A stretch of 64,000 nucleotides of DNA from Candidatus Poribacteria bacterium (GCA_965208325.1 OZ242326.1:608001-672000), one strand, 5' to 3'; positions 18,368 to 33,447 are shown, counted from the first letter of the stretch. Notes: generated by a model from the letters alone, not told the origin. Numbers and translations: made by a program.

Positions 18368-18399
18368 GAATTAGCAATCACAGTAGGTGGAGGTCTAAA

Positions 18400-18756: not shown

Positions 18757-18822
18757 TTAGGTATTTGCGACTGGACGGCTTTGGCCATGGTCAGCATAAG
18801 TTCTGATGCAACGCCTGCTCTT

Positions 18823-18950
18823 GTAGGTTGGGTTAAGCGGGTCCACGAAACCCAATCTACAATCCTACACCCACCCAGTGCTGAAAAGTCCGGAATTGGA
18901 ATTCCCGCCTACAAGCATAATGCTGTAGGAACGATCTCCGAATCGCGACA
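18823..18950. repeat. GTAG-type REP cluster between the GIY-YIG gene and the hsdR stop
   Basis: GTAGGTTGGGTTAAGCG..CGAAACCCAA and CGGAATTGGAATTCCCGCCTAC..GTAGGAACGATCTCCGAATCGCGA; same families as the arrays. Confidence 0.75.
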
Positions 18951-18956
18951 CACACG

Positions 18957-21923
18957 TCACAAAGCCGATGGCGCCGACGGTTGGCGATAATCCTGATACA
19001 GCAACCGCTTTAGGTCGGCATTAACGTCCGGTTTTGATAGTTTGTTGTAAAGGTCCACCTTGTCTTGCACAAAGCCTAACAAAATGGCATCAAACACTTG
19101 ATTAAACTTGTAGCGTCTGTTGCTATCTGTGTTGTCACCCTCAAACACCTGCCGGAGCGACTCGTCGGCGTGCACCTTTTGGCGGATGGTCTCAATGTCA
19201 ACCTTGTCTTCCTGGGTAAAGTCCGTCTGATACGCGTCATTCAGCGTCTGGATGATATTGGAGAGTAGGTCGTGTTCCGGGTCTTTGCGCGAGGACTCAT
19301 CGCCGCCGATACCGTTAACCTCGCTATCTCCTGGGTCGAGATACAGCGTTTGGCTATCATGAATCTTCTGCACACGGAACGAATCCAAGTCCACGGACGC
19401 CAAGACATCGCTTACATCTTCGTATTCCCGTTTCGGCAGTTTCTTATTGAGGCTGCGGCAGAAAACGTAGAGCTTCTCCAACGCGGGGTCGGTGAACGTA
19501 ATCAACTGAGAGATGTATCCGTAACCCCGGATGTAGCTCTGCAATGCGGAACGAAAATCCTCGCGCGCTTCGCTCTCCAACTCCGACCATCTCTTAACGA
19601 CGCCGTCTAGGATGGGTTGCAGCCGTTCATTGGGTTGTTTTTCGTCATAGAAGATAAGGCAAAAGCCGTTGACCGTATCGAGGTCGAATAGCTCAAAATC
19701 TTCCAAACGCCGCTGCAGGTCATACAGCCGATTCGGGTCGGTATCCTCCTCAAGGATGGTCGCCTCATAGTATTGCTGAAACGCATCCTGAATCTGGTCG
19801 GGTTCGTTCACGAAATCGAGCACCAGCGTCTCCGTCTTGCCGGGCGCGACGCGGTTTAAGCGGCTGAGGCTCTGGACGCATTGCAGCCCGCCCAGCCGTT
19901 TATCGACGTACATGGTTTGCAGCATCGGTTCGTCGAAACCGCTCAGGAACTTGTTCGATACGATGAGAATCCGATACTCCGGACGCTTGAAGGTGTCCGC
20001 AATCGAAACGCTCGGCGCCAGATTGTTCATACCGTTTTCCGTGTAGTCCCGCCCGACATCGGTATCGTGCACTGTGCCGCTGAACGCGACCAGACAGCCG
20101 TAATGCAGGTTCATCTCCCTCATCTGGCGGTCAAATTCCGTCTTGTACCGCACACAGTGCATGCGGGACGGCGTGATAAGCATCGCCCTTCCCTTTCCCG
20201 CAATCGTATTTGCGGTGCGCTCGACAAAATGCTCCAGGATAATCCGCGTCTTGGTCTCAATGCTGTGGGGCTGCAGGTCAACGTAGTTCGTGAGCATCCT
20301 GAGCGTCCGCCCCTTCTCATAGGCTTTATCCTCCGATACGCTCTTCACCAGTTGAAAGTAACGCTTAAAGGTGGTATAGTTCTGCAGCACGTCGAGCGTG
20401 AAACCTTCGCTAATGCTCTGACGCATCGAATATACGTGGAACGGGACGAATTTTCCGTCTTCATTCTTCTGTCCAAACAGTTCTAAGGTTTTGTTCTTGG
20501 GTGTGCCGCTGAACCCGAAATATGAGATATGATCTTGCGCTTGGCGCCGCTCCATCTCCTCAATAATTCGCGCATCCATGTCCGAAACGTCAGGTTCGTC
20601 TTCGTCCAATGCCTCGCTCTCAATGCCTTTCGAGAGCGAGACTTTGAGGTTCTTGGCGGCTTCGCCGCTCTGGGAGGAGTGGACTTCATCGACAATCACG
20701 GCGAATGTCTTGCCTTTGAGTTCGCCGATTGCCTCGGCGATTACGCTGAACTTCTGAATCGTCGAGATGATGATGTCCTTTCCGGATTCGAGGAAATTCC
20801 TGAGTTGCGCCGAGGTTTTATCCACGGAGTGCACGACGCCAGCGACCTGCTCCATCTGTTTGATTGTCGCCTGAAGTTGGCGGTCGAGCACGCGACGATC
20901 GGTCACGACGATGATGGAGTCGAAGATGCGGTCCGTGTCTTCGGGAGAACGGTACAGATGCGTGAGCAGGTGCGCCAGCCATGCAATCGAGTTCGACTTG
21001 CCGCTGCCGGTGGCGTGTTGGATGAGGTAGTTACGCCCGACGCCGTCCGCAATGACCGCCGCCTTCAATTTCCGAATTACGTCGAGTTGGTGGTATCGCG
21101 GGAAAACCAACACTGAGCGTGGCTTATCTTTGACTTCGTCGTGGTCAGGGTTGTAGACCTTGTCTGTGACCTTTTGCTCATGAATAAAGTCGCCGATGAG
21201 TTCCATCAGGTTGTCGGGCTGCAAGATGTCCTCCCACAGGTAGGCGGCTTTGTGCCCATCCGGGTTCACCGGGTTTTCGATGCCTCGGTTGTACGGAAAG
21301 AAGCGCGTGCTGCTGCCCTGTAGGTGCGTCGTCATGGAGACCTTCTCGTTACCCACCGCGAAGTGAACCAGACAGCGCCGGAATCGGAACAGCGGCTCTC
21401 TCGGATCCCGGTCGGTGCGGTACTGTTTCTCGGCGTCCGCCACCACCTGACCGGTCAGGCTGTTCTTCAGTTCCATGGTCACCAGCGGCAGACCGTTGAG
21501 GAACAGCACCATATCCAGCGATTTCTCATTTTTTTGCGAGTACTTTAACTGCCGGATCAGAGAAAACCGGTTTTGCGCGTAACGCTTCAGAAGGTCGGGG
21601 TTCATGCCGCTTGCCGGGCGGAAATAGGTCAGGTCGAAGTAACAGCCTCTATCTTTAACGCCGTGCCGCAGCACATCCAGCACGCCGCGGCGTTCGATTT
21701 GTCGGCTTATTTCGTCGAGCAGCTTCTCGGGTGTCTCCTTCTGGTATTGGCGTTCAAGTTTCTCATACGTTTCCGGCTGCGTATCCTGAATAAATTCCAG
21801 CATCTCATCGTGTATCAGGCAGAGGCGCTTATTGTAGAAGACCGGTTGCCGAGAGCGGTAGCCTGACCGATTCAGGTGCGCTTCGATATGGTCTTCAAAG
21901 TTTGTCTCGTCATATGTCGGCAC
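18957..21923 (-). CDS. hsdR: Type I restriction endonuclease subunit R
   Basis: MELKN nuclease motif, QHATGSGKS Walker A, IVDEVHSSQ, FSGTPK, QSLSRLNR; 988 aa. Confidence 0.95.
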   Translation of the reverse strand: MPTYDETNFEDHIEAHLNRSGYRSRQPVFYNKRLCLIHDEMLEFIQDTQPETYEKLERQYQKETPEKLLDEISRQIERRGVLDVLRHGVKDRGCYFDLTYFRPASGMNPDLLKRYAQNRFSLIRQLKYSQKNEKSLDMVLFLNGLPLVTMELKNSLTGQVVADAEKQYRTDRDPREPLFRFRRCLVHFAVGNEKVSMTTHLQGSSTRFFPYNRGIENPVNPDGHKAAYLWEDILQPDNLMELIGDFIHEQKVTDKVYNPDHDEVKDKPRSVLVFPRYHQLDVIRKLKAAVIADGVGRNYLIQHATGSGKSNSIAWLAHLLTHLYRSPEDTDRIFDSIIVVTDRRVLDRQLQATIKQMEQVAGVVHSVDKTSAQLRNFLESGKDIIISTIQKFSVIAEAIGELKGKTFAVIVDEVHSSQSGEAAKNLKVSLSKGIESEALDEDEPDVSDMDARIIEEMERRQAQDHISYFGFSGTPKNKTLELFGQKNEDGKFVPFHVYSMRQSISEGFTLDVLQNYTTFKRYFQLVKSVSEDKAYEKGRTLRMLTNYVDLQPHSIETKTRIILEHFVERTANTIAGKGRAMLITPSRMHCVRYKTEFDRQMREMNLHYGCLVAFSGTVHDTDVGRDYTENGMNNLAPSVSIADTFKRPEYRILIVSNKFLSGFDEPMLQTMYVDKRLGGLQCVQSLSRLNRVAPGKTETLVLDFVNEPDQIQDAFQQYYEATILEEDTDPNRLYDLQRRLEDFELFDLDTVNGFCLIFYDEKQPNERLQPILDGVVKRWSELESEAREDFRSALQSYIRGYGYISQLITFTDPALEKLYVFCRSLNKKLPKREYEDVSDVLASVDLDSFRVQKIHDSQTLYLDPGDSEVNGIGGDESSRKDPEHDLLSNIIQTLNDAYQTDFTQEDKVDIETIRQKVHADESLRQVFEGDNTDSNRRYKFNQVFDAILLGFVQDKVDLYNKLSKPDVNADLKRLLYQDYRQPSAPSAL

Positions 21924-21926
21924 GGG

Positions 21927-23282
21927 CTACACCTCGTTTCGGACATCTATCTTGCCCGTCACAGCATCGGAGATAAGGGATTGGCGGTATTCTTTAAGGA
22001 GTTCAATGCTTCGCTGTTCTTCGGATATTAGTTCGTCAATCTGTAAGATTTTGCGGTCGAGGTAATCGGCGATTTTGGCTTGTTCTTGAATGGATGGAAC
22101 AGGAATCGGAAAGTTCTCAACAAATTTCGTTGGCACCCGTTTCAGACCAACTGCGCTGGTCATAAAATATTTGCCCATGCTACGAAGCGGGTCATTGTGG
22201 AGGACATAATAAAGAAAAGTTGGAAACACTTTCCGCGAGACTGGACGAATGACAATGAACTCAGTTGACCCGAAGCCAACTTGGGATGCCAAATTCTTTA
22301 TGAGGACAATCTTGCCATTTTCAAAACAGGGAGTAACTTTGGCTATGAGAACGTCATTTTCCTCAAAATAAGTGTAGCCGTTTTTGAGTTGTGAATATGG
22401 AACCTTTAATTCTTGGTCAAACGTCCCATCAGTATGAACTCGCTCCATCGGAAGAAAGACCACAAGTTTATCTTTAAGGTAATGTGTTTTGGGATTGTTC
22501 TTCGACGGATTGCTAGAGCCCACATGTTTTACCTTCAAAACTTCCCAATGTGCCGGTATCTCCCCAATCCACTCCACGCCCGACGGTTTCAACTCCACAT
22601 TCGGGTTAAGCCCTTTCGTCACCGCCTGATTTATCAGTGCGGTCCGCTGTTCCTGCAGCAGTTTTTTCTTTCGCTCTTTGATGCGGATTAGCTCGTCAAT
22701 TTGACCGGTCTTGTGGTCGAGGAAGGTCACTATCTTAACTTGCTCATCTTTGGAGGATGGCATAGGGATTAGATTGGAGATATATTCTTCTACCTTGAGG
22801 TTTGGATATGTCGTTGCGGAAACCATGCGCTTTATTCGCTCTTTTGTTATGGATGAAGTCAGAAAATAATACAAAAGCTTTGGCACATACATGTCCCGAT
22901 TCGCTTTCACACGCATCAAAAAATTGCTGAATACGATACTCATGGAACGGTTGTCAATGTATCCTGCCTTTCCAGTGATTATGTTAGTCGCGGATCCGCT
23001 TGACTTTACAACAATAATGTCCCCGTCTTTCACTGAGTAATAATCATGATCGGCTTTGCTAAATGACCTAATAGGCATCTTTTCTATGAGCCAATCTCCA
23101 TCCGTCGTTAGATGTGCTGTAGTTGAAACAGGTACATCAAATTCCAGAATCCCCTGGTCCTCACCCCACACCCCGCTATTATCAATCTGCGCGACATGCT
23201 TCATCTTAACCAATTCCCAAGCCTGGGGTACGGCGCCGATCAACTCCTCACGAGTTTCTATATATTCAGGATATCTCCTCAT
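21927..23282 (-). CDS. hsdS: Type I restriction-modification specificity subunit S
   Basis: Two TRDs separated by EQ..I..FLD..T..IDEL...SGVEWIGEIPAHW; C-terminal EYRQSLISDAVTGKIDVR; start ATG 23282. Confidence 0.95.
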   Translation of the reverse strand: MRRYPEYIETREELIGAVPQAWELVKMKHVAQIDNSGVWGEDQGILEFDVPVSTTAHLTTDGDWLIEKMPIRSFSKADHDYYSVKDGDIIVVKSSGSATNIITGKAGYIDNRSMSIVFSNFLMRVKANRDMYVPKLLYYFLTSSITKERIKRMVSATTYPNLKVEEYISNLIPMPSSKDEQVKIVTFLDHKTGQIDELIRIKERKKKLLQEQRTALINQAVTKGLNPNVELKPSGVEWIGEIPAHWEVLKVKHVGSSNPSKNNPKTHYLKDKLVVFLPMERVHTDGTFDQELKVPYSQLKNGYTYFEENDVLIAKVTPCFENGKIVLIKNLASQVGFGSTEFIVIRPVSRKVFPTFLYYVLHNDPLRSMGKYFMTSAVGLKRVPTKFVENFPIPVPSIQEQAKIADYLDRKILQIDELISEEQRSIELLKEYRQSLISDAVTGKIDVRNEV

Positions 23283-23743
23283 AATCCCAACACTCCTAAT
23301 GACCTTCAAGCGAATTCCCCATGAGCATTATAGCATAATTGATATGTGCTGTCACTGCATATCAACCACAGTCCAAAATCGACGTGGCTGCAAGCACGGG
23401 TACGTTTCTTAATCTTGAGACTGGGAAAATTGATGATAGTCGGCATCCTAATATTGCTTTACAAAAAATCAAATTTGTTATACCATTGTCCCAAAATAAT
23501 CGTCTACATTATATACCGAAATTTAAAGCGGAAGGGTGAGGTATTTGGGGTTGGTGATTTACACTTACCTATTAGACCAGACAGACGAAATTCTTCACTT
23601 CACTTTTTTGAGTCGACACCCGATGCGACGGCAAGAGACAAGCGGCAGTTTTGTTCACTCGCATAAATTTCTTAGAGTCATAATGTTTGTACGCTGTCGT
23701 TTCTCAACTGAGCGACTCAAGACCAGCAGATTATTGAAATGAT

Positions 23744-24820
23744 ATGGAAAACTGTTCAGTCATAGATTTGTTTTGCGGAGCAGGTGCTCTTACACATGGG
23801 TTCGTCCAAGAGGGTTTTAATGTTGTCGCCGGACTTGATGCAGACGAAGCATGTAGATATCCATATGAAACCAACAATAACGGGGCGCAATTTATCGCAG
23901 AAGGAATTGAATTAGTTAAAGGCACTGATCTCTCAAAGCACTATCCGAAAGGCAATACAAAAATACTCGTAGGTTGTGCCCCATGCCAGCCTTACTCACC
24001 TTACAACAAGCGCAAACGGTTTCCGGAGAACAAGTGGAAATTGCTCACTAGCTTTTCTGACAGAATCTCGGAGATTAAACCGGATATTGTATCAATGGAA
24101 AATGTCCCAGATTTGGTGACTTTCAATAAAGGCAGTATTTTTCAGGACTTCGTGAAACGCTTGGAAACGGATTACATTGTTACTTCATATCCAGCAGTGT
24201 TCTGTCCCGACTTTGGCATTCCGCAACAGCGAAAACGGCTAGTTCTTTTCGCCTCCAAATTCGGCAAACTCGAACTTCTGAAAGCAACTTGCCAGCCCAG
24301 TGAATATAAGAAGATTAAAGATGTAATAGGTAACCTAGAATGGCTTGAAGCTGGCAAGACAAGTCAGAACGATCCTTATCATAAAGCAGCTGGGTTGTCG
24401 GACTTAAACCTTCAACGCATTAGAGCGTCCAAGCCCGGCGGCACATGGAGAGATTGGCCTAATGATTTGGTTGCGCGCTGTCATCAAGAAAAAAAGGGCA
24501 AAGGCTATGCGAGTGTCTACGGAAGGATGCAATGGGATGGTCTTTCCCCAACGATTACAACACAGTTCCATGGGTTTGGAAATGGAAGATATGGCCATCC
24601 TGAACAGGATCGCGCGATTTCGTTAAGGGAAGCGGCGCGACTCCAGACGTTTCCTGACAGCTATAAATTCGTTCCGCCAGATAGCCCGCATTCCGTTACG
24701 ATGATTGCGCGATTCATCGGAAACGCGGTGCCCGTTGAACTCGCTCGAATAATTGCAAAAAGCATCAAACGACACCTATTGTCTCAACGAATTACTCTAG
24801 GGGTTGAAGAGAATGCCTAA
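23744..24820 (+). CDS. C5-cytosine DNA methyltransferase (Dcm-like)
   Basis: IDLFCGAG (I), GCAPCQ (IV), MENV (VI), QQRKR (VIII), REAARLQTFP (IX), GNAVP (X). Confidence 0.95.
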   Translation: MENCSVIDLFCGAGALTHGFVQEGFNVVAGLDADEACRYPYETNNNGAQFIAEGIELVKGTDLSKHYPKGNTKILVGCAPCQPYSPYNKRKRFPENKWKLLTSFSDRISEIKPDIVSMENVPDLVTFNKGSIFQDFVKRLETDYIVTSYPAVFCPDFGIPQQRKRLVLFASKFGKLELLKATCQPSEYKKIKDVIGNLEWLEAGKTSQNDPYHKAAGLSDLNLQRIRASKPGGTWRDWPNDLVARCHQEKKGKGYASVYGRMQWDGLSPTITTQFHGFGNGRYGHPEQDRAISLREAARLQTFPDSYKFVPPDSPHSVTMIARFIGNAVPVELARIIAKSIKRHLLSQRITLGVEENA

Positions 24821-26966
24821 ACTAAAATTCACGATTGATGCCGCGCTATTGAGAGAGCTTGGAGAAAGGCTTGTCGGTAGACCTCACATTGCATTGGCAG
24901 AATTAATTAAGAACAGTTATGACGCTGATGCAACTCAAGTAATCATTGAGTTTTCACCAGATAGCGACCAAATTAAGGTCTCTGACAATGGACACGGCAT
25001 GACGTTCGAGGAATTCAAAAACTTTTGGATGCGAATTGGAACAACTCACAAGTGGAAAAAACAGTCCCGAGGTTTTAACCGAGCCATGACCGGTTCTAAA
25101 GGAATTGGACGTTTAGCAGTCCAATTTTTGGCTACGAGGCTGGAAATCAAAACTGTTTCCAGTGACGCACGTGGCAATTGGCTTGAAGCACAAGCTAATT
25201 GGTTAGAGACCGCAAACGCTAAGGAACTTTCGGAGGCGACGGTTGAATACAATCTTAGCGGCGCAACTACGCCATTTCCGCACGGCACTTCAATAATTCT
25301 TAACGGATTAAAAGGCGAGTGGACAACTGAATCCGTTCGGAAGTTAGCCTCTGAGCTATGGTGGCTTCAGCCCCCTTTCACTTCCTCATCCTCGGATTTA
25401 ACCCATTCGAATGTTGAATTTCGAGTTGATTTTCAGGCTTCTCATCACAATTACGCCCAAGAATTTCTTAACCAAATGAACGCGATAAAGCGCATTTGGA
25501 TTGCGCGGATAGTCGGAAAGAATGTTGACGGGAAAGTCAGGCTTTCGCTAGAGTTTCCCGGTGACCAGCCAACTATTAACAAATACAACATAGCTGACTT
25601 TTCCCACAATTTGGGACAATACGACAAAAACAATAACCTCAATAACGCACATTTTGAGATTCGGATTTATAATCTGTCGGGAAGACAAAGATTTGGCATT
25701 GAGGTGAAAAAAGCTAGAAAATATTTTGAAGAACATGGAGGCGTCCACGTTTATGATGGTGGGTTTCGACTCCCTTACTACGGTTTACCGACGAGCGACT
25801 GGCTGAAATTGGAATACGATCACTCTCATCGAAAAACGGTTTCCCAATATTTTCCGAGAGAAATCCAGGTTCACAGAGCCTTAAATGATTTACCGACCCT
25901 TGGGCGCGTTCTTGGTGAGGTGAATGTAGACACGTCCCGAGAACATAATCTCAAGATTATGATTACTCGAGATCGTTTAACTGAAACTAGGGCGTATGAC
26001 GATCTCGTGTCTATTGTCCGACATGCAATTGATTGGTACGCAATCGAAACTGCTCGGCGCAAATTTGAGGCGAAAAAAAGAGAAGCGCCGCCTGAACCTA
26101 CATCGCAGAGACTTGTAAAAATTGAACAAGTCTTGGAACAGTATGAACCTGAAATTCCTAAAAACGTGTATCACGAGGTACATGAAGAAGTTCAAAAGGT
26201 AATTACAACGGTAAAGACAAATCAGGAGTTCGTTATTGAACAGATGGCGCTGCTTGCGCCGCTCGCGACGGCAGGTATTTCGGCGTTATCGTACCAGCAC
26301 GAGTTGAAAAAACAATTTGCGTTTGTTGAAAGCATAATCGACAGCATGACTGGCATTCAAACAGAAGATCGTGGACTCCGGCAGGACTTGATTTCACTAA
26401 GCGGGGATTTGAAATTGTGGCTGGAAAGAGCCAAAGCAACCAACGGTCTCTTTGACTACATAGCTGACGCTGAGAACACCAAGTTAAGGTTCAGGTTGCG
26501 AGCTAATTCGGTGATTCACGATATCGTTACACAGACGCGTTTCTTAGCACGTGACATCAAAGTTGATTTTAGTCAGCTTGAGGACGAACTGTTTTTGCCA
26601 AAGGCATCATTTGCAGAATGGGGTGCAATTTTTCAAAATATTTTTACCAACTCATTTAATGCAATGCTTGATTCGTCCGAACGCCTGCTTCATATTAGTT
26701 CACAATCCAAGCAGAAATCACGCGAGATACTTATCCAAGACACTGGACACGGTATTAACGTAGAAGAGTCAGATAGGTATTTCAATCCATTTGAGCGGGC
26801 ATCCTCTGTTTCTCCCGAACGACAAGCGCTTGGTTATGGTGGTACCGGCCTCGGTCTTACAATAGTGCGGCTGCTAGCGGACAATATCGGATGCCGGGTG
26901 CAATTCGTACCGCCGCACAGCGGGTTTAGGACAGCGTTCTCAATTCAATGGAGGGAAAGTAAATGA
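24813..26966 (+). CDS. Fusion of N-terminal MORC/MutL-like GHKL ATPase and C-terminal histidine kinase
   Basis: N-term ELIKNSYDADA, DNGHGM, GSKGIGR, GT; C-term H-box QHELKKQ, NIFTNS, QDTGHGI, FNPF, GGTGLGL; ATG overlaps the methylase 3' end. Confidence 0.88.
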   Translation: MPKLKFTIDAALLRELGERLVGRPHIALAELIKNSYDADATQVIIEFSPDSDQIKVSDNGHGMTFEEFKNFWMRIGTTHKWKKQSRGFNRAMTGSKGIGRLAVQFLATRLEIKTVSSDARGNWLEAQANWLETANAKELSEATVEYNLSGATTPFPHGTSIILNGLKGEWTTESVRKLASELWWLQPPFTSSSSDLTHSNVEFRVDFQASHHNYAQEFLNQMNAIKRIWIARIVGKNVDGKVRLSLEFPGDQPTINKYNIADFSHNLGQYDKNNNLNNAHFEIRIYNLSGRQRFGIEVKKARKYFEEHGGVHVYDGGFRLPYYGLPTSDWLKLEYDHSHRKTVSQYFPREIQVHRALNDLPTLGRVLGEVNVDTSREHNLKIMITRDRLTETRAYDDLVSIVRHAIDWYAIETARRKFEAKKREAPPEPTSQRLVKIEQVLEQYEPEIPKNVYHEVHEEVQKVITTVKTNQEFVIEQMALLAPLATAGISALSYQHELKKQFAFVESIIDSMTGIQTEDRGLRQDLISLSGDLKLWLERAKATNGLFDYIADAENTKLRFRLRANSVIHDIVTQTRFLARDIKVDFSQLEDELFLPKASFAEWGAIFQNIFTNSFNAMLDSSERLLHISSQSKQKSREILIQDTGHGINVEESDRYFNPFERASSVSPERQALGYGGTGLGLTIVRLLADNIGCRVQFVPPHSGFRTAFSIQWRESK

Positions 26967-28174
26967 AAAAGAAAATCCTGATTTATGATGATGAGCAGCA
27001 ACAAAGAGAGGTCTTCAAGACAAAATTGATGCGTGGACTGGAAAGAGCAAAAGTAGACGACGCTTTCGATGTTAAAATCATTGGTGAGGACGATCTTCAG
27101 ATCTCAATGGAAACATTGCGGGCTAGGCAGGTTGCTACTCGGGACAACGGCGAATCTTCTGATGAGACGACGCAATTTGACGAAACCTCAGTATTCATGA
27201 TTGATTACGACCTACTCAAAAGTAATGCGAAAGGATTTTTCACGGGTGAAAACCTCGCGTACAGTGTTAGATGCTTTTCAACATGCAAGATGATTGTAGG
27301 ATTGAATCAATTTGGAAGCAACCCGTTCGATTTAACGTTGAAAGGACATCCAGAATCCTTCGCTGACTTGAATCTCGGGGTGGAACAGCTTGATAATCCC
27401 GGTCTCTGGCACAGCAACTGGGGAGATTCCAGACAAGGTTTTAGACCGTGGTACTGGCCGAATTTATCGGACTCCCTGAATAATTTTGACCAGAAGTTTG
27501 AGGATGTTCAACAGAATTTGGACAAGCCTATCTGTACAGTTCTTGGGTTTAATCAAGAATTGTTCGGTACGCTACCCCGCGCCGTTGTTCAATTCTTAGG
27601 AAAAGGCAATGGGAACGATTCCACTCAAGCGACGTGTCGGGAGTTTGTCACAGAGTCCGGCAACGGTTTAAGGCCTAAAGACGCGACCATTTCAGATGTG
27701 GACGTTTTGGCAAGGGTTGGGGCAGCAAGAATCTCAAAATGGCTGGAGAGATTCGTTTTGCCGGAGCAGGACTTCCTGGTTGATGCGCCGCATTTGGTCT
27801 CCAGGTATCCGAGTCTCATTGCAAATGGCGAGACGACAATCAAGGCTTGGAACAGAACAGCGCAATTGGTGGACTATCGGGAATTGGGGCTTGTCTCCGA
27901 GGTTATAGAACGCTTTAGATTCAAAAAAGACTATTGGATTTCACGCCCTGTTTGGGTTTGGGATGAACTTCGCGAGTGTAAACGTATCAAAGAAGTATCG
28001 GAACCCTGGGGGACACCAAAACCAGAGTGGGTTTTCTGTGAAGATGCCTCGCGATTCTACAACCGTAACACCTGCCGCACTTTTTTTGCCGACACTGCGT
28101 CCCCATTCATTCGGCGATTTGCTAGGAGTTTCAAGAATGTTGATTATAGGCCTATGGTTCGGCTTTCACTGTGA
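26963..28174 (+). CDS. Response-regulator receiver-domain protein with unrecognised C-terminal region
   Basis: KKKILIYDDE acidic pocket and FMIDYDL phospho-Asp strand; ATGA overlap with the kinase stop; no HTH recognisable. Confidence 0.7.
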   Translation: MKKKILIYDDEQQQREVFKTKLMRGLERAKVDDAFDVKIIGEDDLQISMETLRARQVATRDNGESSDETTQFDETSVFMIDYDLLKSNAKGFFTGENLAYSVRCFSTCKMIVGLNQFGSNPFDLTLKGHPESFADLNLGVEQLDNPGLWHSNWGDSRQGFRPWYWPNLSDSLNNFDQKFEDVQQNLDKPICTVLGFNQELFGTLPRAVVQFLGKGNGNDSTQATCREFVTESGNGLRPKDATISDVDVLARVGAARISKWLERFVLPEQDFLVDAPHLVSRYPSLIANGETTIKAWNRTAQLVDYRELGLVSEVIERFRFKKDYWISRPVWVWDELRECKRIKEVSEPWGTPKPEWVFCEDASRFYNRNTCRTFFADTASPFIRRFARSFKNVDYRPMVRLSL

Positions 28175-28192
28175 GTTTCGCCTAAAAACGAA

Positions 28193-28888
28193 ATGAAAAA
28201 AACTGTCACGACGTTAGAAGATATCCTGGTGCCCCTGTTTCAGATTCAAGAATCCGCTTGGGGTGAAAAGGATTTAACGCTAAAACCATCCAAACAAGCG
28301 TTGAATACTTACCATGCCATATCTGTAGTGGTACCGCCCATAACTCTTGAAGAAACTAAATTCATTTATGAACCACCTAACTACATACTGGATTATTCTC
28401 AACGTGGAAGAGTGTTATATCTTCCACCGCTCCAAAACAAAGTCTCGGACTTTGTGCCAATTCTGTCGGCATGTTGCAAAATGAGCAGAGCGAAGTGCAC
28501 TGCGAGACTCCAAGTCATGTTAGTACGTTTTAACCAGCACCCTAAACCTCTTGGCATGGGTTTTCGTCTAGAAACGCCAGAACGCGCGAATCAGAACGAC
28601 GATGCTACGACTCAAGAGGGGATCCACGACTTTCACCATGCGCAACTCATTCGGGAATTTCGTGATAATCGGCTTGACGGCGCTCTGCGAATTAGTTGCC
28701 CTTGGTGGCTACCTGTTACTCAACCCTCGTTTCCGTTGCCCGCCGAATGTCCTGTAACGTTGTTGCTCTGCCTTATTGTGACGCTGTATGGTAGAAGGTA
28801 TTATAATCAGTTCCTAGACGACCATCAAATATTCGACATCAAACGGCACCGAAAGAAACTAGATCCGTGGATAAACTGGCGAAAATAA
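28193..28888 (+). CDS. Hypothetical protein with FRLETP...HDFHHAQ motif
   Basis: 231-aa ORF starting 18 nt after the receiver gene; clustered His residues. Confidence 0.7.
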   Translation: MKKTVTTLEDILVPLFQIQESAWGEKDLTLKPSKQALNTYHAISVVVPPITLEETKFIYEPPNYILDYSQRGRVLYLPPLQNKVSDFVPILSACCKMSRAKCTARLQVMLVRFNQHPKPLGMGFRLETPERANQNDDATTQEGIHDFHHAQLIREFRDNRLDGALRISCPWWLPVTQPSFPLPAECPVTLLLCLIVTLYGRRYYNQFLDDHQIFDIKRHRKKLDPWINWRK

Positions 28889-28922
28889 TTGAATACTCCC
28901 GCAATATTGGTAAAAAAAACGC

Positions 28923-29426
28923 TCAAGTTTCGCCGCACGACCGATGGATGTCATCCTCACAAATGAACTTCACTGTCACACCATTTTCACGAAGTACGTG
29001 GCGGAATTCCCACCACTGCGTGTCGGTCGCTTGCAGGATTGGCGGTTTCTCTGCATGGGCAAGCGCAACTGCGACAAATTTCCGATCTTTTGAATGAAAA
29101 CCATTCAACGCTTTATCGTCTGGAAACTCTTTAAATTCATTTTCTAAACCGTTCACAGTCGTGATCGAAACTAAGTGGCATCGTTTATCTTTGTTAATCA
29201 AGACCCAGCGAAGAAACCTATCGCCTGTACCGGGCTTACCGCTAGAGCGAAGATTACCGATGTATTCGGCGAGAATTATCCATCTATCATCAAGAACCAA
29301 TGTCTCCTCGCCACGCATGATTTTTTCAAGCTTACCGATACAGGTGTTAACGCAATTCGGAGTAGCTTGCGGTGACTCCTCTCGACCGTTGGCGACCTTC
29401 GCAACGTTTGTATCCACCACAACCAT
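28923..29426 (-). CDS. PIN-like domain protein (putative RNase)
   Basis: VVVDTNV start, E-Y, DRKFVAVA and ATD acidic motifs; TAATG coupling to the upstream ATPase. Confidence 0.7.
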   Translation of the reverse strand: MVVVDTNVAKVANGREESPQATPNCVNTCIGKLEKIMRGEETLVLDDRWIILAEYIGNLRSSGKPGTGDRFLRWVLINKDKRCHLVSITTVNGLENEFKEFPDDKALNGFHSKDRKFVAVALAHAEKPPILQATDTQWWEFRHVLRENGVTVKFICEDDIHRSCGET

Positions 29427-30727
29427 TATTCCATCACTTTCCGCCGGTTCATTTCAGCTTTAGTCTTTTCCACTAGGTCCCCCATATCATCGCCAAAGAA
29501 GTTTTGGGGCCAATTTCGGATGTTGCCGTATTCATCAACATTGAGTCGTTCAATTTCGGAACGACCATCGTTGATTTGGCAGGAATAGAGTTCCGTGTCG
29601 TTCGTCGAAAGCTGCTCCTCGGCGATGCGGCGTGTTAAGCGGTGAAGCAGGTGCTCGCTGTGGCTTTCAAAAATTATCTGGACGTTTCGATTCTTCACGA
29701 CATCAATCAGAATGTCTGCGAGTTCTGATTGCGCTTTTGGATGTAGATGGGCTTCAGGTTGTTCAATGATAAGGATTGAGCCCTCAGGAGCGTAATAGCA
29801 TAGAACCAACACCGGCAGAACCTGGGAAACGCCAAGACCTACATCTAAAAGTTTGACTTCGAGACTGCCGTTGTATTCTGTGACATGAAATTCGTAACTC
29901 TGTTTTCTTCCTTGGACCGGGTCGAGTCGATAGGAGTCAATCAATTCCAATCGCTTTACCCATTTCTGAATCTGTTCGTCAACTGAGAGACGCCTTACTC
30001 GCGCTGAAAGCAGTGCGGAAATCATCTTTTCCCCACGCTGACCAACGTCTTTTGCATGATCGCCCTCCCAGACGTAATGGTGCCGAGGATGTTCGCGAAG
30101 AGGCCCCAAGAAATGGATCTGAGCAAATAATTTTTCGAAGTCGTTTTTACAAACTAGGAGTTCTTCCAAGCGTTCATCAAAATGGTTATCGGGGGTCATA
30201 ACGCCATAGCATCGAAATGGATTCGCATCAATCGGCTCTTCAAACGATGACGGCTTGTAAAACGCTGCATAGACGGAAACTTTGAATTTATTGTTTTCGC
30301 GCTCTCCTACTATCTTCCAGATGTCTTTCCAGCCATAATAAAACCTCTCCACTTCAGATTGCCTGGATTTTTTTTCAATTTTCGTGGTGAATGAAATCCA
30401 TTCGGTCGACAGCCATGAACTCTTCTGAGGTTTAGCCCGTTTCCAGGTAACGGAAACATCAAGCGTTAATTCCTCACTGTGCCCATGAATCATGTCATCG
30501 AAACTACCGAGGTGAACCAGCGTTTTCTTGTCACACTCATCACCTAAGTAAAGGGGTTCATTCCAATCCGATGGACGTTCCGAAGTCTGCTTGAGCATTA
30601 GCAGGACTTGCAAGATGCTGGTTTTTCCGGAGCTATTCGCGCCGAAGAATCCGGTCAATGGTGCGAACTGCAGCGCACCGGTATCTTTCCAAGACTTGAA
30701 ATTTTGGGCTCTGAGCTCGGTAATCAT
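29426..30727 (-). CDS. ABC/AAA_21-type ATPase with C-terminal DUF3696
   Basis: GANSSGKT Walker A, VGLGVSQVLP signature, IEQPEAHLHP Walker B/D-loop, ESHSEH, DEYGNIRNWPQNFFG tail. Confidence 0.88.
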   Translation of the reverse strand: MITELRAQNFKSWKDTGALQFAPLTGFFGANSSGKTSILQVLLMLKQTSERPSDWNEPLYLGDECDKKTLVHLGSFDDMIHGHSEELTLDVSVTWKRAKPQKSSWLSTEWISFTTKIEKKSRQSEVERFYYGWKDIWKIVGERENNKFKVSVYAAFYKPSSFEEPIDANPFRCYGVMTPDNHFDERLEELLVCKNDFEKLFAQIHFLGPLREHPRHHYVWEGDHAKDVGQRGEKMISALLSARVRRLSVDEQIQKWVKRLELIDSYRLDPVQGRKQSYEFHVTEYNGSLEVKLLDVGLGVSQVLPVLVLCYYAPEGSILIIEQPEAHLHPKAQSELADILIDVVKNRNVQIIFESHSEHLLHRLTRRIAEEQLSTNDTELYSCQINDGRSEIERLNVDEYGNIRNWPQNFFGDDMGDLVEKTKAEMNRRKVME

Positions 30728-30809
30728 AACTTTTCCTCTATTTCACAAAGAGATTGAAACACACAATCCAACACGTGCCGATGATGAAGCGTTGTGTTTT
30801 ACAATTACG

Positions 30810-30890
30810 ACCTCCCCTAACCCCTCCTTGGTAAGGAGGGGAATTTTAAAGCAAAGTCCTCCCCTTTGCCAAGGGGGAGTTAGAGGGGGT
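30810..30890. repeat. Palindromic doublet downstream of the DUF559 gene
   Basis: ACCTCCCCTAACCCCTCCTTGGTAAGGAGGGG-16nt-CCTCCCCTTTGCCAAGGGGGAGTTAGAGGGGGT; the halves are imperfect inverted repeats. Confidence 0.9.
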
Positions 30891-31267
30891 CAGACTCCTG
30901 ATTTCTCCATCTCCTCGACTGTGTGCCTAACGAATTCCATAACCCCGTCAAGATTTCCGCAAACTTCCGCGTTCGTAAAACGCAGAAAACGGATGCCAAA
31001 CCTCTCAATGAATTCTTGCCTTGTCAGATCATATTCACCAGCCCCGGCTTGAAAATGTGTATCACCATCAATTTCGATTGCCAGTTTTAGCGAAGGACAA
31101 TAGAAATCGACGATGTACACACCAACACTGTACTGTCTGCGGAACTTATAGCCCTGCATCTGTTTTGCACGCAACTTTGACCAAACCAAAGTTTCCGCTT
31201 CAGTCATGTTTTTCCGCAGTTTGTGTCTTTTTTCCTTCTCGCTCGTTCTATTGAAAACTCGTGTCAT
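30890..31267 (-). CDS. DUF559 (Vsr-like) endonuclease domain protein
   Basis: LRKNMTEAE..W..LR, FRRQY, YIVDFYC, IEIDGDTH, D..R, RFTN. Confidence 0.92.
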   Translation of the reverse strand: MTRVFNRTSEKEKRHKLRKNMTEAETLVWSKLRAKQMQGYKFRRQYSVGVYIVDFYCPSLKLAIEIDGDTHFQAGAGEYDLTRQEFIERFGIRFLRFTNAEVCGNLDGVMEFVRHTVEEMEKSGV

Positions 31268-31291
31268 ATTCCCGTTTAACTCGCCGTTTCA

Positions 31292-31462
31292 ACCTCCCCT
31301 AGCCCCTCCTTGGCAAGGAGGGGAACAAGGACAAAAAAATCCTCCCCCTTGCGAAGGGGGATCGAGACTAAATGACCAACTGCCCACGAGGTCAAAAATT
31401 GTCGGGAATTGGAATTCCCTCCTACAGGCGTAAGGCGGTAGGAGCGATTTCCAAATCACGGC
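31292..31462. repeat. Palindromic doublet plus GTAG REP pair upstream of the DUF559 gene
   Basis: ACCTCCCCTAGCCCCTCCTTGGCAAGGAGGGG...CCTCCCCCTTGCGAAGGGGGA (31292-31361); TCGGGAATTGGAATTCCCTCCTAC..GTAGGAGCGATTTCC (31401-31462). Confidence 0.85.
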
Positions 31463-31473
31463 AAAGCATCTCA

Positions 31474-31502
31474 ATTATAACACAGTTTGATTCCATTGAC
31501 AA
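31474..31502 (-). promoter_or_regulatory. Sigma70-type promoter facing the DUF559, ATPase and PIN genes
   Basis: Minus strand TTGTCA-17 nt-TATAAT with TG before the -10. Confidence 0.6.
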
Positions 31503-31620
31503 AGCCTTGAGGTGCAGGTCAAACTTCTCCTAAAGATGTTGCAGAAGCATAACTTGTATGTCTCTCATGGCAAAAATGAAATTTCAGATGCAGTTATCCT
31601 GAAGGTGGTTGCTTATTGGC

Positions 31621-31649
31621 TTGTCTTTTATTTGCGATTGTGCTATAAT
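31621..31649 (+). promoter_or_regulatory. Sigma70-type promoter facing a hairpin and the repeat array
   Basis: TTGTCT-17 nt-TATAAT with extended -10 (TGCTATAAT). Confidence 0.6.
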
Positions 31650-31654
31650 CCCGG

Positions 31655-31760
31655 AATTCCAATTAGAAAGTGAGTTCAGAAATTGTTCAATCAACTAAAA
31701 CCAAGGGCGGCGTGAATGCCAGCTAGGTTTGGTTAGATCTACTGAACTTCCCGCCATTTC
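31655..31760 (+). ncRNA. Candidate structured small RNA (long irregular hairpin)
   Basis: GAGTTCAG(31672-79)/CTGAACTT(31742-49), ATCAACTAAAACC/GGTTTGGTTAGAT, apical GGCG-TGAA-TGCC; downstream of a promoter; no convincing ORF. Confidence 0.3.
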
Positions 31761-31849
31761 TTCCTGCCAATCGCCCGTCCGTGAGCAGTGTACCTCACTG
31801 CTATTTTTCGTGCCTTCGACTTTTTTCAAATAACAATCAAAACAACCTC

Positions 31850-33392
31850 CTTCTCCTTAGTAAGGAGGGGAATAAGAACAAAAGAACTTCCCACAGCATA
31901 CCACGTTGTCGTGAAGTCGAGAGGTTTGAAAAGCGTTGGGTTTCGCTGTAAGCATAAATATCTCGAACTCAATCGACAAACTATATTCATGCTGGATAGC
32001 TTACGTTTTTCATGGAACCCGCTCTACCCAACCTACAAAACCATAAAGACTATCGCCTTCCCTATTCGGTCAGTTGATCCTCCTTGGTAAGGAGGGGAAT
32101 AAAAACAAAAGAACTTCCCACAGCATACCACGTTGTCGTGAAGTCGAGAGGTTTGAAAAGCGTTGGGTTTCGCTGTAAGCATAAAAATCTCGAACTCAAT
32201 CGGCAAACTATACTCATGCTGGATAGCTTACATTTTTCATGGAAACCGCTCTACCCAACCTACAAGAGCTATTGCGTACAAAATTATCGGGAATTGGCAT
32301 TTCCTCCTACAGGCATAATTCGGTAGGAATTATCTCCGATTCTCGACACGCTAGGTCAATGGTTCCTCAATAATCGGGAAAGGGATTTCCCTCCCACAAG
32401 GCTCATATTCTTCGGTATTTGTATGTTGGGAAGAGCCAACGACGAAACCCAACCTACATAATTACAATGACTATCGCCTTCCCTATTCGGTCAGTTGATC
32501 CTCCTTGGTAAGGAGGGGGATAAAAACAAAAGAACTTCCCACAGCGTACAACGATGTCTGGAAGTCGAGAGTTTTGAAAAGCGTTGGGTTTCGCTGCGGG
32601 TATACAAGTCGTGAACTCAATCGACAAACTATATTCATGCTGGATAGCTTACGTTTTTCATGGAACCCGCTCTACCCAACCTACAAGAGCTACTGCGTAC
32701 AAAATTATCGGGAATTGGCATTTCCTCCTACAGTCGTAATGCGGTAGGAATGATTTCCGAATCTCGACACGCTAGGTCAATGGTTTCTCAATAATCGGGA
32801 AAGGGATTTCCCTCCCACAGGGTTCGTGTTTTGCGGCTTTTGTAGGGTGGGTAGAGCCAACGGCGGAACCCAACCTACAAAATTACAAAGACTATCGCCT
32901 TCCCTATTCGGTCAGTTGATCCTCCATAGTAAGGAGGGGAATAAAATCTCGCAATACCGAACGTGTTTTTGCCGTCGAGAGGTTTGAAAAGCGTTGGGTT
33001 TCGCTGTAAGCATAAAAATCTCGAACTCAATCGACAAACTATATTCATGCTGGATAGCTTACATGTTTCATAGAACCCGCTCGACGCAACCTACAAGAGC
33101 TACTGCGTACAAAATTATCGGGAATTGGCATTTCCTCCTACAGTCGTAATGCGGTAGGAATGATTTCCGAATCTTGACACGCTAGGTCAATGGTTCCTCA
33201 ATAATCGGGAAAGGGATTTCCCTCCCACAGGGTTCGTGTTTTGCGGCTTTTGTAGGGTGGGTAGAGCCAACGGCGAAACGCAACCTACAAAATTACAAAA
33301 TTTATTGCCATCTCTAATCGGTCTGTTGATTCTCCTTGGTAAGGAGGGGAAAAAATATGAAAATCCTCTCCTTTGACAAGGGGGAGGTTGAG
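31850..33392. repeat. Mosaic (BIME-like) tandem array of three REP families, four units (right island border)
   Basis: GCGTTGGGTTTCGCT at 31933, 32160, 32581, 32991 (periods 227, 421, 410 bp); CCTCCTTGGTAAGGAGGGG palindromes; ATCGGGAATTGGCATTTCCTCCTAC/GTAGGAATGATTTCCGA and GTAGGGTGGGTAGAGCC..CCCAACCTAC modules. Confidence 0.95.
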
Positions 33393-33447
33393 ATTGATAA
33401 ACGAAAGAGAGCGAACGCTACGAAAACGAATAAAGGAGGCTGTAACC

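Follow-up and report, generated by a model that had tools for sequence, protein, structure and literature searches.

The window, a 64,000-nucleotide stretch of DNA from a Candidatus Poribacteria bacterium, contains an operon of four coupled genes on the plus strand (23744..28888), as determined by analysis of open reading frames. The genes encode a C5 cytosine DNA methyltransferase (23744..24820, 358 residues), a dual-GHKL protein that is a GHKL/kinase fusion (24813..26966, 717 residues from the ATG at 24813), a receiver protein (26963..28174, 403 residues), and an α/β protein without detectable relatives of known fold (28193..28888, 231 residues). The first start codon of the fusion reading frame is the TTG at 24804. 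The alternative ATG at 24813 is immediately preceded by GGGG..GAAGAG, and its use results in an 8-nucleotide overlap with the methylase gene, the stop of which is at 24820. According to their coordinates, the fusion and receiver genes share an ATGA overlap (26963-26966), and the third and fourth genes are separated by 18 nucleotides (28175-28192). The reading frames and coordinates agree with an earlier note on this DNA, which described four tightly spaced genes with these overlaps and this gap.

Domains and conserved residues of the encoded proteins

The translated methylase contains the FxGxG, PCQ, ENV, QxRxR, and GNAVP motifs and matches Pfam PF00145 (E 8.8e-59), TIGR00675 dcm (132.9 bits, cut-off 100.65), and PADLOC MTase_II (E 2.1e-88). 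It is 48-52% identical to methylases adjoining BbrUII/HgiDII restriction enzymes in three related loci (L036, L037, and L055).

The fusion protein consists of an ATPase head of the MutL/HgiDII type, a middle region of approximately 340 residues, and the DHp and CA modules of a histidine kinase. The N-terminal head is a Bergerat ATPase domain, HATPase_c_3 (24885..25241, residues 28-146; PF13589, E 3.7e-28), most like the head of the BbrUII/HgiDII restriction enzymes. It matches only positions 2-180 of the 659 in the corresponding NCBIfam profile NF050001 (E 2.9e-28, 98.8 bits), and in the PDB it matches the N-termini of MutL and PMS2, including when a profile of 49 relatives is used. The predicted autophosphorylation site is the invariant H-box histidine of the SYQHELK motif (codon 26298..26300), which is H496 counted from the ATG start and H499 from the TTG start. 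The C-terminal catalytic (CA) domain (26628..26948, residues 609-715; PF02518, HATPase_c, E 6e-18) carries the N, G1, F, and G2 boxes and matches the CA domains of AdeS and CpxA in the PDB, and the profile of the 49 relatives aligns at positions 486-680 with the DHp and CA domains of HK853 (2c2a/3dge, E 2.6e-5). In the numbering of the 717-residue protein, the residues invariant among the 49 relatives are E30, N34, D37, D58/G60/G62, and G94/K96/G97/G99 in the head, and H496-E497, N609, N613, D643/T644/G645/G647, and G674/G676/G677/G679/G681 in the kinase; the H-box histidine and the following glutamate are invariant in 49-50 relatives. The most hydrophobic 19-residue Kyte-Doolittle window of the fusion protein reaches 1.52, which does not indicate a transmembrane segment. 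Pfam matches, PDB matches, and hydropathy agree with the previous description of a protein with two GHKL modules, an H-box kinase, and no transmembrane segment.

The third protein begins with a CheY-like receiver domain with insertions (26963..27487, residues 1 to approximately 175), followed by a C-terminal domain without a family or fold match (27488..28174, residues approximately 176-403). The receiver joined to an unrecognised output had been noted before, and that part of the description stands; the output comprises approximately 230 residues rather than the proposed 280. The receiver contains the acidic pair D9/D10 and the predicted phospho-acceptor D81 (codon 27203-27205), and this aspartate pocket is conserved across the family. 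The H-box histidine and the N, G1, F, and G2 boxes of the kinase likewise follow the canonical two-component pattern. The residues of the previously proposed His-to-Asp relay are conserved in the family, and phosphotransfer may take place between them. The positions of the switch residues Thr/Ser (end of β4) and Lys (end of β5) were placed via the strands of a structure model. The former is occupied by Asn in 58 of 61 receiver proteins, and the latter by K or R in only 37 of 61, so that the third protein lacks the canonical receiver switch residues. The highly conserved polar residues of the C-terminal domain are D274 and H277 (each in 60/61), S327, R328, E360, D361, S363, and R385, with E360, D361, and R385 present in 61/61. 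A profile search of PDB sequences with this domain gave no match, and fold searches that used the whole protein as the query were taken up by matches to receiver domains.

The residues Y76, R125, E127, H145, H149, Q151, W172, and C186 of the fourth protein are invariant, and its motifs are GFRxETPE...HDFHHAQL. It had been called His-rich, a label that fits only the local HDFHH motif, since histidine makes up 3.0% of the protein. It has no Pfam match at E≤10, a fold search found no catalytic fold, and PADLOC v2.0.0 is without a model for either the third or the fourth protein. The fourth protein evolves fast, with a mean pairwise distance of 0.72 compared with 0.32-0.55 for the remaining parts. 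A nuclease or other catalytic fold was recognised neither in the third-protein C-terminal domain nor in the fourth protein, in agreement with the previous statement that the operon holds no recognisable restriction endonuclease.

Recurrence and genomic setting of the cassette

The arrangement recurs in 84 related loci of bacteria and archaea and is therefore far beyond chance. In 72 of the 73 loci with at least 300 nucleotides of upstream sequence, the gene directly upstream of the receiver gene is that of the kinase, and the fourth gene lies directly downstream in all 73 loci with at least 400 nucleotides of downstream sequence. Among the 24 loci whose flanks extend at least 4 kb upstream and 3.5 kb downstream, 22 encode a C5 methylase inside the locus. 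The distance from the kinase stop to the most upstream receiver start is 0 nucleotides or less in 69/73 cases, and that from the receiver stop to the fourth-gene start is at most 50 nucleotides in 75/77; this spacing suggests coupling. The kinase, receiver, and fourth genes form a nearly invariant triad, and the methylase is nearly always adjacent but exchanged. Wherever a methylase was found in a locus of the family, it is a C5 enzyme, and its class switched at least three times on the tree of receiver proteins. The variable region of the kinase tracks the phylogeny of the triad and not the methylase class.

The family comprises 637 clusters at 50% identity, with members in Poribacteria, WOR-3, and an archaeal SAG, and also on plasmids of Actinomycetota. 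Within the phylum, only 21 of 176 genomes carry the cassette, and it is present in none of the three other genomes of the genus. The co-occurrence of the four genes elsewhere supports the view of the earlier note that they are one unit, and the unit is a conserved and horizontally mobile cassette. The operon is flanked in the window by a type I R-M system and by the PADLOC candidate system HEC-03A/B, and the neighbours of the relatives include Shedu SduA_C, NACHT, type IIG-like methylases, integrases, and a transposase. The defence-island context, previously deduced from the adjacent type I R-M system and an ATPase/PIN pair, is supported. The 167-residue neighbour that had been taken for a PIN protein has no Pfam match at E≤1 and matches PADLOC HEC-03A instead.

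Genes for Vsr (26 loci) or HhH-GPD glycosylases (6 loci) are present in 32 of the 84 loci, and the repair gene often directly follows the fourth gene on the same strand. In L035-L037 and L055, it follows the fourth gene even though the methylase is on the other strand with a restriction enzyme of its own. The linkage to Vsr and HhH-GPD genes argues for constitutive action of the methylase on the host. In L036, L037, and L075, the methylase next to the triad has a recognisable restriction enzyme as its partner; L055 is similar, as judged from a phmmer match only. Therefore, the triad is not simply a missing R subunit.

Proposed mechanism and alternatives

We favour, with modest confidence, the interpretation that the operon is a mobile cassette directed against invading phages or plasmids, in which a phosphorelay gates a methylation-coupled defence and the effector is the fourth protein, the domain at the C-terminus of the receiver protein, or both. 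The C5 methylase would mark the host chromosome constitutively. The second protein would dimerise, and its MutL/HgiDII-like head and middle region may take the sensor role that a membrane or PAS domain has elsewhere, probably as an ATP-driven clamp that closes on DNA or a methylase-DNA complex. Once switched on by the sensor, the C-terminal kinase domain would trans-autophosphorylate His496, and the phosphate would move to Asp81 of the third protein. The phosphorylated receiver may then release or activate the output, formed by its own C-terminal domain and the fourth protein, with DNA as the most likely target. It is plausible that the fourth gene encodes an effector, because other branches hold MBL hydrolases or HNH proteins in that slot; among four further plasmid loci with dual-GHKL kinases that were inspected (L099-L102), three have a gene for an MBL-fold hydrolase after a receiver-like gene of approximately 228 residues. 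The lack of a recognised nuclease or catalytic fold in the putative effectors and the non-canonical switch positions speak against this reading, and the Vsr and HhH-GPD genes in the operons also fit a role in repair.

The earlier note proposed that the ATPase senses unmethylated or foreign DNA, or loss of methylase activity. A reading of unmethylated target sites found no support, since the methylase was swapped at least three times and the variable region of the kinase did not follow. Such exchanges are hard to square with classical site-specific restriction. Because the sequence of the triad does not track the methylase class, a built-in sequence reader is a less likely means of telling self from non-self than a generic one, such as the 5mC status or a contact made with the methylase. 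We tentatively consider that the triad could be a sequence-agnostic "restriction head" for any C5 methylase. Either the state of methylation or the engagement of the methylase with DNA would be read by the MutL-like clamp, and His-to-Asp phosphotransfer, rather than allostery or transcription, would trigger a two-protein effector made of two folds without known relatives, one of them a new nuclease family.

The phosphorylated third protein might instead bind DNA through its C-terminal domain and induce the methylase and the fourth protein, which would be the sole effector. A precedent is the Ambrosia system (AbrR-AbrA-AbrB-AbrC-AbrD), which is reported to block phages in P. aeruginosa; according to the available text of the preprint, reporters in the methylase and nuclease positions are induced on infection, and AbrC carries a wHTH (bioRxiv 10.1101/2025.09.30.679545). 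Several short helices at residues 185-245 of the third protein would suit DNA binding. However, no HTH or wHTH family matches the third protein or its 60 relatives, and the most conserved part of the C-terminal domain is a mixed α/β region whose invariant D/H/E/D/R residues are more suggestive of an active or interaction site. The scan for HTH families gave no match at E≤1 in seven reading frames of at least 30 residues upstream of the operon (23310-23743), and there is no gene for an XRE-type regulator in this segment or in the operon. The linkage to Vsr and HhH-GPD genes also suggests constitutive rather than induced methylation. Transcriptional control is unlikely.

A role in the maintenance of a 5-methylcytosine-containing genome is still less probable. 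The MutL-like ATPase and the relay would coordinate or license repair of T:G mismatches arising from 5mC deamination, together with Vsr or a Mig-type glycosylase and without an attack on invaders. The repair genes in 32 of the 84 loci, often right after the fourth gene, the similarity of the kinase head to MutL, and the presence of a C5 enzyme in every locus of the family where a methylase was found are in favour. MutL participates in very-short-patch repair in E. coli, a role touched on in the accessible text of PMC2292703, which adds to this. However, Vsr accompanies C5 methylases in general, and its presence near the cassette therefore needs no special explanation. The operon in the window is without Vsr, and the sole Vsr match in the genome is 1.6 Mb away. 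The patchy distribution on islands and plasmids and the speed at which the fourth protein evolves are what conflict systems typically show, and the N6 methylases of sister branches do not give rise to a deamination problem.

Equally doubtful is a methylation-licensed suicide or addiction module, in which the effector would cut the cell's own 5mC-marked DNA, in a type IV-like manner, after the kinase has sensed either infection or the loss of the element, leading to abortive infection or post-segregational killing rather than direct restriction. Phage gained no protection from methylation by AbrA, and the Ambrosia nuclease belongs to a type IV, modification-dependent family, according to the available text of the preprint (bioRxiv 10.1101/2025.09.30.679545). 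The indifference of the triad to its partner C5 methylase also fits an effector that reads 5mC itself and not a sequence. On the other hand, the searches gave no domain of the SRA, Mrr, or HNH_2 kind that reads modifications, the Ambrosia authors state in the same available text that there is no host toxicity during defence, and for the family of the window such a module is purely inferential. It is very improbable that the fourth protein is a membrane-acting effector rather than a nuclease, with the relay triggering membrane damage: its residues 180-198, which overlap a hydrophobic helix (186-200), have a 19-residue Kyte-Doolittle mean of 1.87, above the usual threshold of 1.6, but the AF2 model packs the helix into a compact globular fold (pTM 0.86, pLDDT 92-95 at the helix), the segment is nearly invariant, which is unusual for a plain anchor, and a motif-sharing family from Paraburkholderia carries D and H along the corresponding stretch.

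Comparison with known systems

Detocs, a defensive two-component system, uses a cytoplasmic kinase-to-receiver relay to switch on an effector domain attached to the receiver during phage infection. Unlike the cassette, it is not known to include a methylase; one of its proteins is a receiver that acts as a buffer, and its sensor and effector domains are different ones.

The head of the fusion protein matches that of BbrUII/HgiDII (NF050001), and the partner is a closely related class of C5 methylase. The remaining approximately 480 positions of the profile are missing and replaced by the middle region and histidine kinase. True members of NF050001 lie beside the triad in L036 and L037 (794 and 790 bits). 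The genome of the window has no full-length member; its best match is the same head, with 98.8 bits against a 550-bit cut-off. The cassette also resembles the MORC/paraMORC systems, in which a MutL-like GHKL ATPase is encoded among methylase, Vsr, and nuclease genes of R-M operons and ATP-driven remodelling of DNA or complexes was proposed (Iyer, Abhiman & Aravind 2008, PMC2292703). The available text of that paper does not contain the word "receiver", and "histidine kinase" appears there only in spelling out GHKL. The defining trait of paraMORC is the S5 transducer domain; in the fusion protein the GHKL head is established.

An unnamed MBL-hydrolase branch on plasmids of Hymenobacter, Burkholderia, and Pseudanabaena and an XRE/N6 branch of Paraburkholderia have a dual-GHKL kinase (21-26% identical over 86-96% of the length); behind it come a receiver-like gene and then a fourth gene, and a methylase lies upstream in three of four loci. 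Their receiver-like proteins are shorter (approximately 228 or 355 residues) and are not matched by the profile of the window family. The fourth slot holds an MBL-fold hydrolase or a 225-residue protein that shares only the H-x-[FI]-x-H-A-Q motif, and hhalign of the latter family with that of the window fourth protein was not significant (E 0.3).

Among the systems of this architecture that we found, Ambrosia alone has been tested experimentally, and according to the available preprint text its defence needs the phospho-acceptor aspartate (bioRxiv 10.1101/2025.09.30.679545). Compared by architecture, both systems combine in one cluster the genes for a DNA methylase, for a sensor histidine kinase of the HATPase type, for a receiver protein with a phospho-acceptor aspartate, and for a further protein. 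The XRE regulator AbrR has no counterpart among the seven upstream reading frames, and the N6-adenine methylase AbrA is replaced by a C5 methylase. AbrC has a wHTH, and the domain of approximately 230 residues at the end of the third protein gave no HTH family match; in place of the HNH (type IV) nuclease AbrD there is a fourth protein without an HNH or other family match. The tie to Ambrosia is architectural. The receiver and fourth proteins of the other branches have no detectable homology to those of the window family.

Two-component-like modules of HEF_HK (PF19191) and Response_reg_2 (PF19192) linked to R-M systems were described computationally in 2021 and read as paraMORC-related (Bellieny-Rabelo et al. 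2021, PMC8011034). The cassette shares with them a soluble HATPase_c_3, DHp, and HATPase_c kinase, an adjoining receiver-like protein, an upstream C5 methylase, frequent nearby Vsr, and the placement of the kinase-receiver pair in an R-M/C5-methylase neighbourhood. In the available text of PMC8011034, the receiver-like protein has no other known domain, and no fourth component of the kind in the window is named. HEF_HK is matched below threshold by 8 of the 49 relative kinases (best E 0.0013), and Response_reg_2 by one of 61 receiver proteins (E 0.18); the genome of the window has no match to Response_reg_2, nor do the control genomes. The window proteins match neither Pfam model at E≤10, but the class to which their architecture belongs was already described in 2021 (PMC8011034), and Ambrosia, one of its branches, is reported to have been validated in 2025. 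The family of the window represents a branch, so far unstudied, within a class of anti-phage systems that was recognised only recently, and it is not a new kind of system.

Composition of the cassette and its proteins

The cassette begins with a 358-aa ORF (23744-24820, forward strand, as are the other three genes), which matches the C5 cytosine methylase family (PF00145, E = 8.8e-59) and scores above the own cut-off of TIGR00675, in agreement with its earlier annotation. The second gene (24804/24813-26966) encodes 720 residues from a TTG or 717 from an ATG start, and the motif GGGG..GAAGAG precedes the ATG at 24813. The tight coupling described in the earlier note was reproduced: the stop of the first gene and the ATG of the second overlap by 8 nt, the second and third genes share an ATGA, and an 18-nt gap separates the third and fourth. 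Promoter and terminator scans gave numbers at chance level (10 found versus 9.5 expected, and 4 versus 5.8).

The second protein contains the two GHKL modules ascribed to it, HATPase_c_3 in residues 28-146 (E = 3.7e-28) and HATPase_c in residues 609-715 (E = 6e-18). The best model for its head is that of the NCBIfam BbrUII/HgiDII restriction enzymes, of which only profile positions 2-180 of 659 are covered, and the head also matches the N-termini of MutL and PMS2 in the PDB. Over its C-terminal third, the protein can be aligned with the DHp and CA domains of kinases including HK853. No transmembrane segment is indicated, as previously proposed, since the hydropathy maximum over all averaging windows is 1.52, which is under the usual threshold.

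Searches of Pfam (even at E <= 10), NCBIfam, and PADLOC with the third and fourth proteins returned zero matches, and PDB sequence-profile searches with the alignments of both proteins found nothing under E = 0.1. The third protein (26963-28174, 403 aa) was predicted with a mean pLDDT of 94.6 from an alignment of 61 sequences, and residues 1 to about 175 of the model form a receiver domain with insertions. A Foldseek search of the PDB, run with the whole protein, returned mostly receiver domains and response regulators in the top rows (best E = 5.9e-3, probabilities of up to 1.00), and receiver-domain matches filled both lists. The acidic pair D9/D10 is retained in 59 of the 61 sequences at each position, and D81, located where strand 3 ends, in 58. 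Asn occupies the canonical Thr/Ser position in 58/61, and a K or R is found at the Lys position in no more than 37/61. Residues D274, H277, E360, D361, S363, and R385 of the C-terminal half are invariant or nearly so. All the nearest clusters in the ESM Atlas were without a name, and the leads DUF2290 (0.86) and iREC (0.87) both fell short of the 0.9 line.

The invariant residues of the fourth protein (28193-28888, 231 aa) are grouped in the motifs GFRxETPE and HDFHHAQL. Its description as histidine-rich therefore holds locally, but not overall, where histidine accounts for 3.0% of residues. A confident model was predicted for the protein, for which no fold relatives were found, and the hydrophobic helix 180-198 (Kyte-Doolittle 1.87) is packed into this globular model. 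The Paraburkholderia branch of the kinase family, which contains XRE and N6-methylase genes, has a 225-aa fourth protein (L085:8217-8894) with an invariant A-H-P-x-F-H-A-Q motif that recalls HDFHHAQL. Despite the common motif, profile comparison gives no support for homology of the two proteins (hhalign probability 0.2%, E = 0.3); kinship was not used as evidence, and the likeness of the motifs may reflect convergence or very distant kinship.

Conservation, spread, and methylase exchange

Relatives of the third protein number 942 at E <= 1e-3 among near-length candidates, there are 637 clusters at 50% identity, almost all of about 400 aa, and 191 relatives of the fourth protein were found; all of them are unnamed or annotated as hypothetical. 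We collected 84 related loci by third-protein homology, 4 from species genomes and 80 from metagenomes, the latter being the best 80 of 172 confirmed among 194 candidate stretches. The third gene is thus present in every locus by construction, and the counts are not independent because near-duplicates occur (for example L009/L010, L019/L021, L075/L076, and L083/L084). Of the 73 loci that have 300 nt or more of upstream sequence, 72 carry a dual-GHKL gene immediately upstream; all 73 of those that have 400 nt or more of downstream sequence carry the fourth gene immediately downstream; and a C5 methylase is present within 22 of the 24 loci that extend at least 4 kb upstream and at least 3.5 kb downstream. 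The two loci lacking a C5 methylase within their limits are L005 and L063. Gene spacing within the cassette is tight across loci. The sole exception to the upstream kinase gene is locus L030 (3171-5056), the only one in which the receiver and fourth genes lack the kinase gene. The roughly 930 nt upstream of the pair contain no ORF of at least 120 aa, and transporter genes lie farther out. This locus has the appearance of a decayed copy.

The family is represented in Poribacteria, WOR-3, and the single-cell genome of an archaeon, as well as on plasmids of Mycolicibacterium and Ornithinimicrobium, and a profile search confirmed the membership of the Mycolicibacterium locus L087. The cassette is carried by 21 of 176 genomes of the window's phylum and by none of three other genomes of the same genus. 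It is real and conserved, and it is a patchy, mobile element. Mirror-tree correlations between the cassette parts all fall within 0.59-0.86 and were not used as evidence of contact, because they are confounded by shared descent.

Single linkage at 45% divides the methylases into two classes, of 31 loci and of 19 rows (18 loci and the window), with 26-32% identity between the classes. In 34 of 46 loci the methylase gene is positioned upstream on the same strand; in 7 it is upstream but divergent, and in the remainder downstream and convergent. Methylase class requires four changes on the maximum-likelihood tree of the third protein, and at least three of the changes are forced by well-supported branches. 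The exchangeable part of the cassette is the methylase, and the triad of kinase, receiver, and fourth genes pairs specifically with 5mC methylases. The least conserved region of the kinase (residues 121-300) tracks the phylogeny of the triad and not the methylase class: in this region, locus L009 (class 1) is 57% identical to L019 (class 2), a similarity equal to that of class 2 against class 2 (60%), whereas L009 and L026, both of class 1, share only 41%. We looked for a swap of a target-recognition domain in the kinase that would track methylase class and saw none; no built-in target-recognition domain travelling with the methylase is therefore apparent.

Neighbouring genes and the defence island

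Vsr genes neighbour the cassette at 26 loci and genes for HhH-GPD (Mig-like) glycosylases at 6, often directly 3' of the fourth gene; 24 of the Vsr and all 6 HhH-GPD genes were identified among 134 neighbour proteins and the two further Vsr genes in a separate scan. DUF559 is a further match of the Vsr proteins of L026, L064, and L072, in their C-terminal part. Recognisable restriction enzymes are rare at the related loci. True BbrUII/HgiDII enzymes adjoin the methylase in L036 and L037 (794 and 790 bits, cut-off 550), L055 has a similar gene detected by a phmmer match only, and L075 contains an XhoI fragment.

The window's closest relative, the Poribacteria locus L002, has the same flanks, namely a type I S subunit upstream and a pair encoding a 168-aa protein and a 443-aa AAA_15/AAA_21 ATPase downstream. 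The pair is arranged like the HEC-03 pair of the window, in an equal relative position and with the same ATPase Pfam families. Between its fourth gene and this pair, L002 contains an extra 700-aa BbrUII/HgiDII-like gene (10228-12330, reverse strand; 359.5 bits, under the cut-off of 550), whereas the corresponding spacer of the window is 34 nt long (28889-28922). Therefore, a probable restriction gene was either lost or never gained in the window's lineage. The window's genome has no full-length BbrUII/HgiDII member, and its single Vsr match is 1.6 Mb distant from the cassette.

A type I R-M system and a DUF559 protein are also located in the window's island, along with the PADLOC candidate HEC-03A/B. 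In the R-M system (15390-23309), hsdS (21927-23309, reverse strand) and hsdR (18957-21923, reverse strand) are set apart from hsdM (15390-17147, reverse strand) by an inserted opposite-strand pair, one gene potassium-channel-like (17375-18367, forward strand; Ion_trans_2, E = 4.8e-12) and one a 118-aa ORF without a family (18400-18756, forward strand). The convergent HEC-03 pair (28923-30727) consists of a 167-aa protein A (E = 2.2e-28) and an AAA_15/AAA_21 ATPase B with DUF3696 (E = 1.9e-109). The PIN label that the 167-aa protein had received finds no backing in Pfam, where it has zero matches at E <= 1. The 125-aa DUF559 protein (30890-31267, reverse strand; E = 3.6e-31), which also matches REase_MTES_1575, is encoded 2 kb from the cassette and might be the mismatch or restriction-type endonuclease of the island. 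The G+C content of positions 22000-34000 is 43-46%, versus about 50% on either side, which together with the defence genes suggests that the island was horizontally acquired. The 31.3-33.3 kb segment has no ORF of at least 150 aa, and no tRNA genes were found anywhere in the window. A 1241-aa ORF at 44033-47758 (reverse strand) matches no Pfam family at E <= 1e-5.

Proposed function and relation to known systems

Further plasmid branches of the same kinase family were found. In three of them, a receiver-like gene of about 228 aa is followed by an MBL-fold hydrolase, and in another, genes of 355 aa and 225 aa accompany an XRE gene and an N6-type methylase. In the Campylobacter pTet branch, a receiver protein and a convergent dcm are present, and in the Enterobacter mori branch the kinase is followed by just one gene, of 357 aa. 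Profiles of the window's family did not detect the partner proteins in branches L085-L087. Across branches, the kinase is constant and the receiver tail and fourth gene are variable; therefore, the fourth protein is likely the effector with the receiver's C-terminal domain as its matching adaptor or co-effector.

Based on its parts list, conservation, and context, we consider it somewhat more probable than otherwise that the cassette is a phosphorelay-gated, methylation-coupled defence system. The classical sensor would be replaced by the MutL/HgiDII-like head and the middle region of the kinase. Autophosphorylation of His496 may be licensed when the kinase dimerises, driven by ATP, on DNA or on a complex of methylase and DNA, and the phosphate would pass from there to Asp81. 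The receiver would then turn on the output, presumably formed by its own C-terminal domain and the fourth protein. Alternatively, the cassette may exert transcriptional control, as was proposed for the anti-phage system Ambrosia of P. aeruginosa, or it may be an accessory to the repair of 5mC damage, with which the linkage to Vsr and HhH-GPD genes and the MutL-like head are consistent. It could also be a suicide module licensed by 5mC. The methylase swaps, the complete R-M pairs in some loci, and the lack of a recognisable nuclease all argue against a plain missing restriction subunit.

Methylase-linked cassettes with phosphorelay wiring are taking shape as a class of prokaryotic immunity that is both large and modular and of which a single member has been tested. 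The window's branch is abundant in bacteria and archaea, includes two proteins without a family, one of them with a confident model but no fold relatives, and has one signalling triad that is compatible with interchangeable C5 methylases. The signal of the kinase and the roles of the last two proteins bear on how an ATPase of the MutL/MORC type can provide the input to a histidine kinase and whether a DNA-targeting effector can be gated directly by post-translational His-Asp signalling. The compatibility with swappable methylases bears on the origin of DNA-methylation reading by eukaryotic MORCs.

No experiments with the window's family were found in the literature, and among the listed matches the relevant ones were the 2021 modules work and Ambrosia. 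The V. cholerae system WASA, as described in the available part of its report (PMC12137116), is a GHKL-Shedu fusion and a different system, and in that of DefensePredictor (PMC13092281) HATPase and REC appear only where a figure legend gives the key to predicted systems. The available text of Bellieny-Rabelo et al. 2021 (PMC8011034) describes a class of soluble kinases composed of HATPase_c_3, DHp (HEF_HK, PF19191), and HATPase_c, partnered by an adjacent receiver-like protein (Response_reg_2, PF19192) with a linkage of 91.6% in 644 regions. Type II R-M systems and C5 methylases are enriched there, Vsr or HNH_2 genes are often near, and the evidence is purely computational. The architecture of the window's cassette was thus already described in that class. 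Neither Pfam model matched the window's proteins at E <= 10; HEF_HK was matched sub-threshold by 8 of 49 kinase relatives and Response_reg_2 by 1 of 61 receiver-protein relatives (E = 0.18), and a PF19192 search of the window's genome gave no match, with control genomes likewise silent. Therefore, the cassette family is a sister branch of the class and not a member of it.

In Ambrosia, according to the accessible part of its preprint (bioRxiv 10.1101/2025.09.30.679545), an XRE regulator and an N6 methylase are combined with a HATPase kinase, a REC-wHTH protein, and an HNH nuclease of type IV. Every component is needed for defence, the D60A substitution abolishes it, infection induces the genes, and the methylation does not protect the phage. 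Compared by description, the window's cassette differs in having a C5 instead of an N6 methylase and in having no regulator gene, no detectable wHTH, and no HNH. The cassette is a variant within an already described architecture and not a new kind of system.
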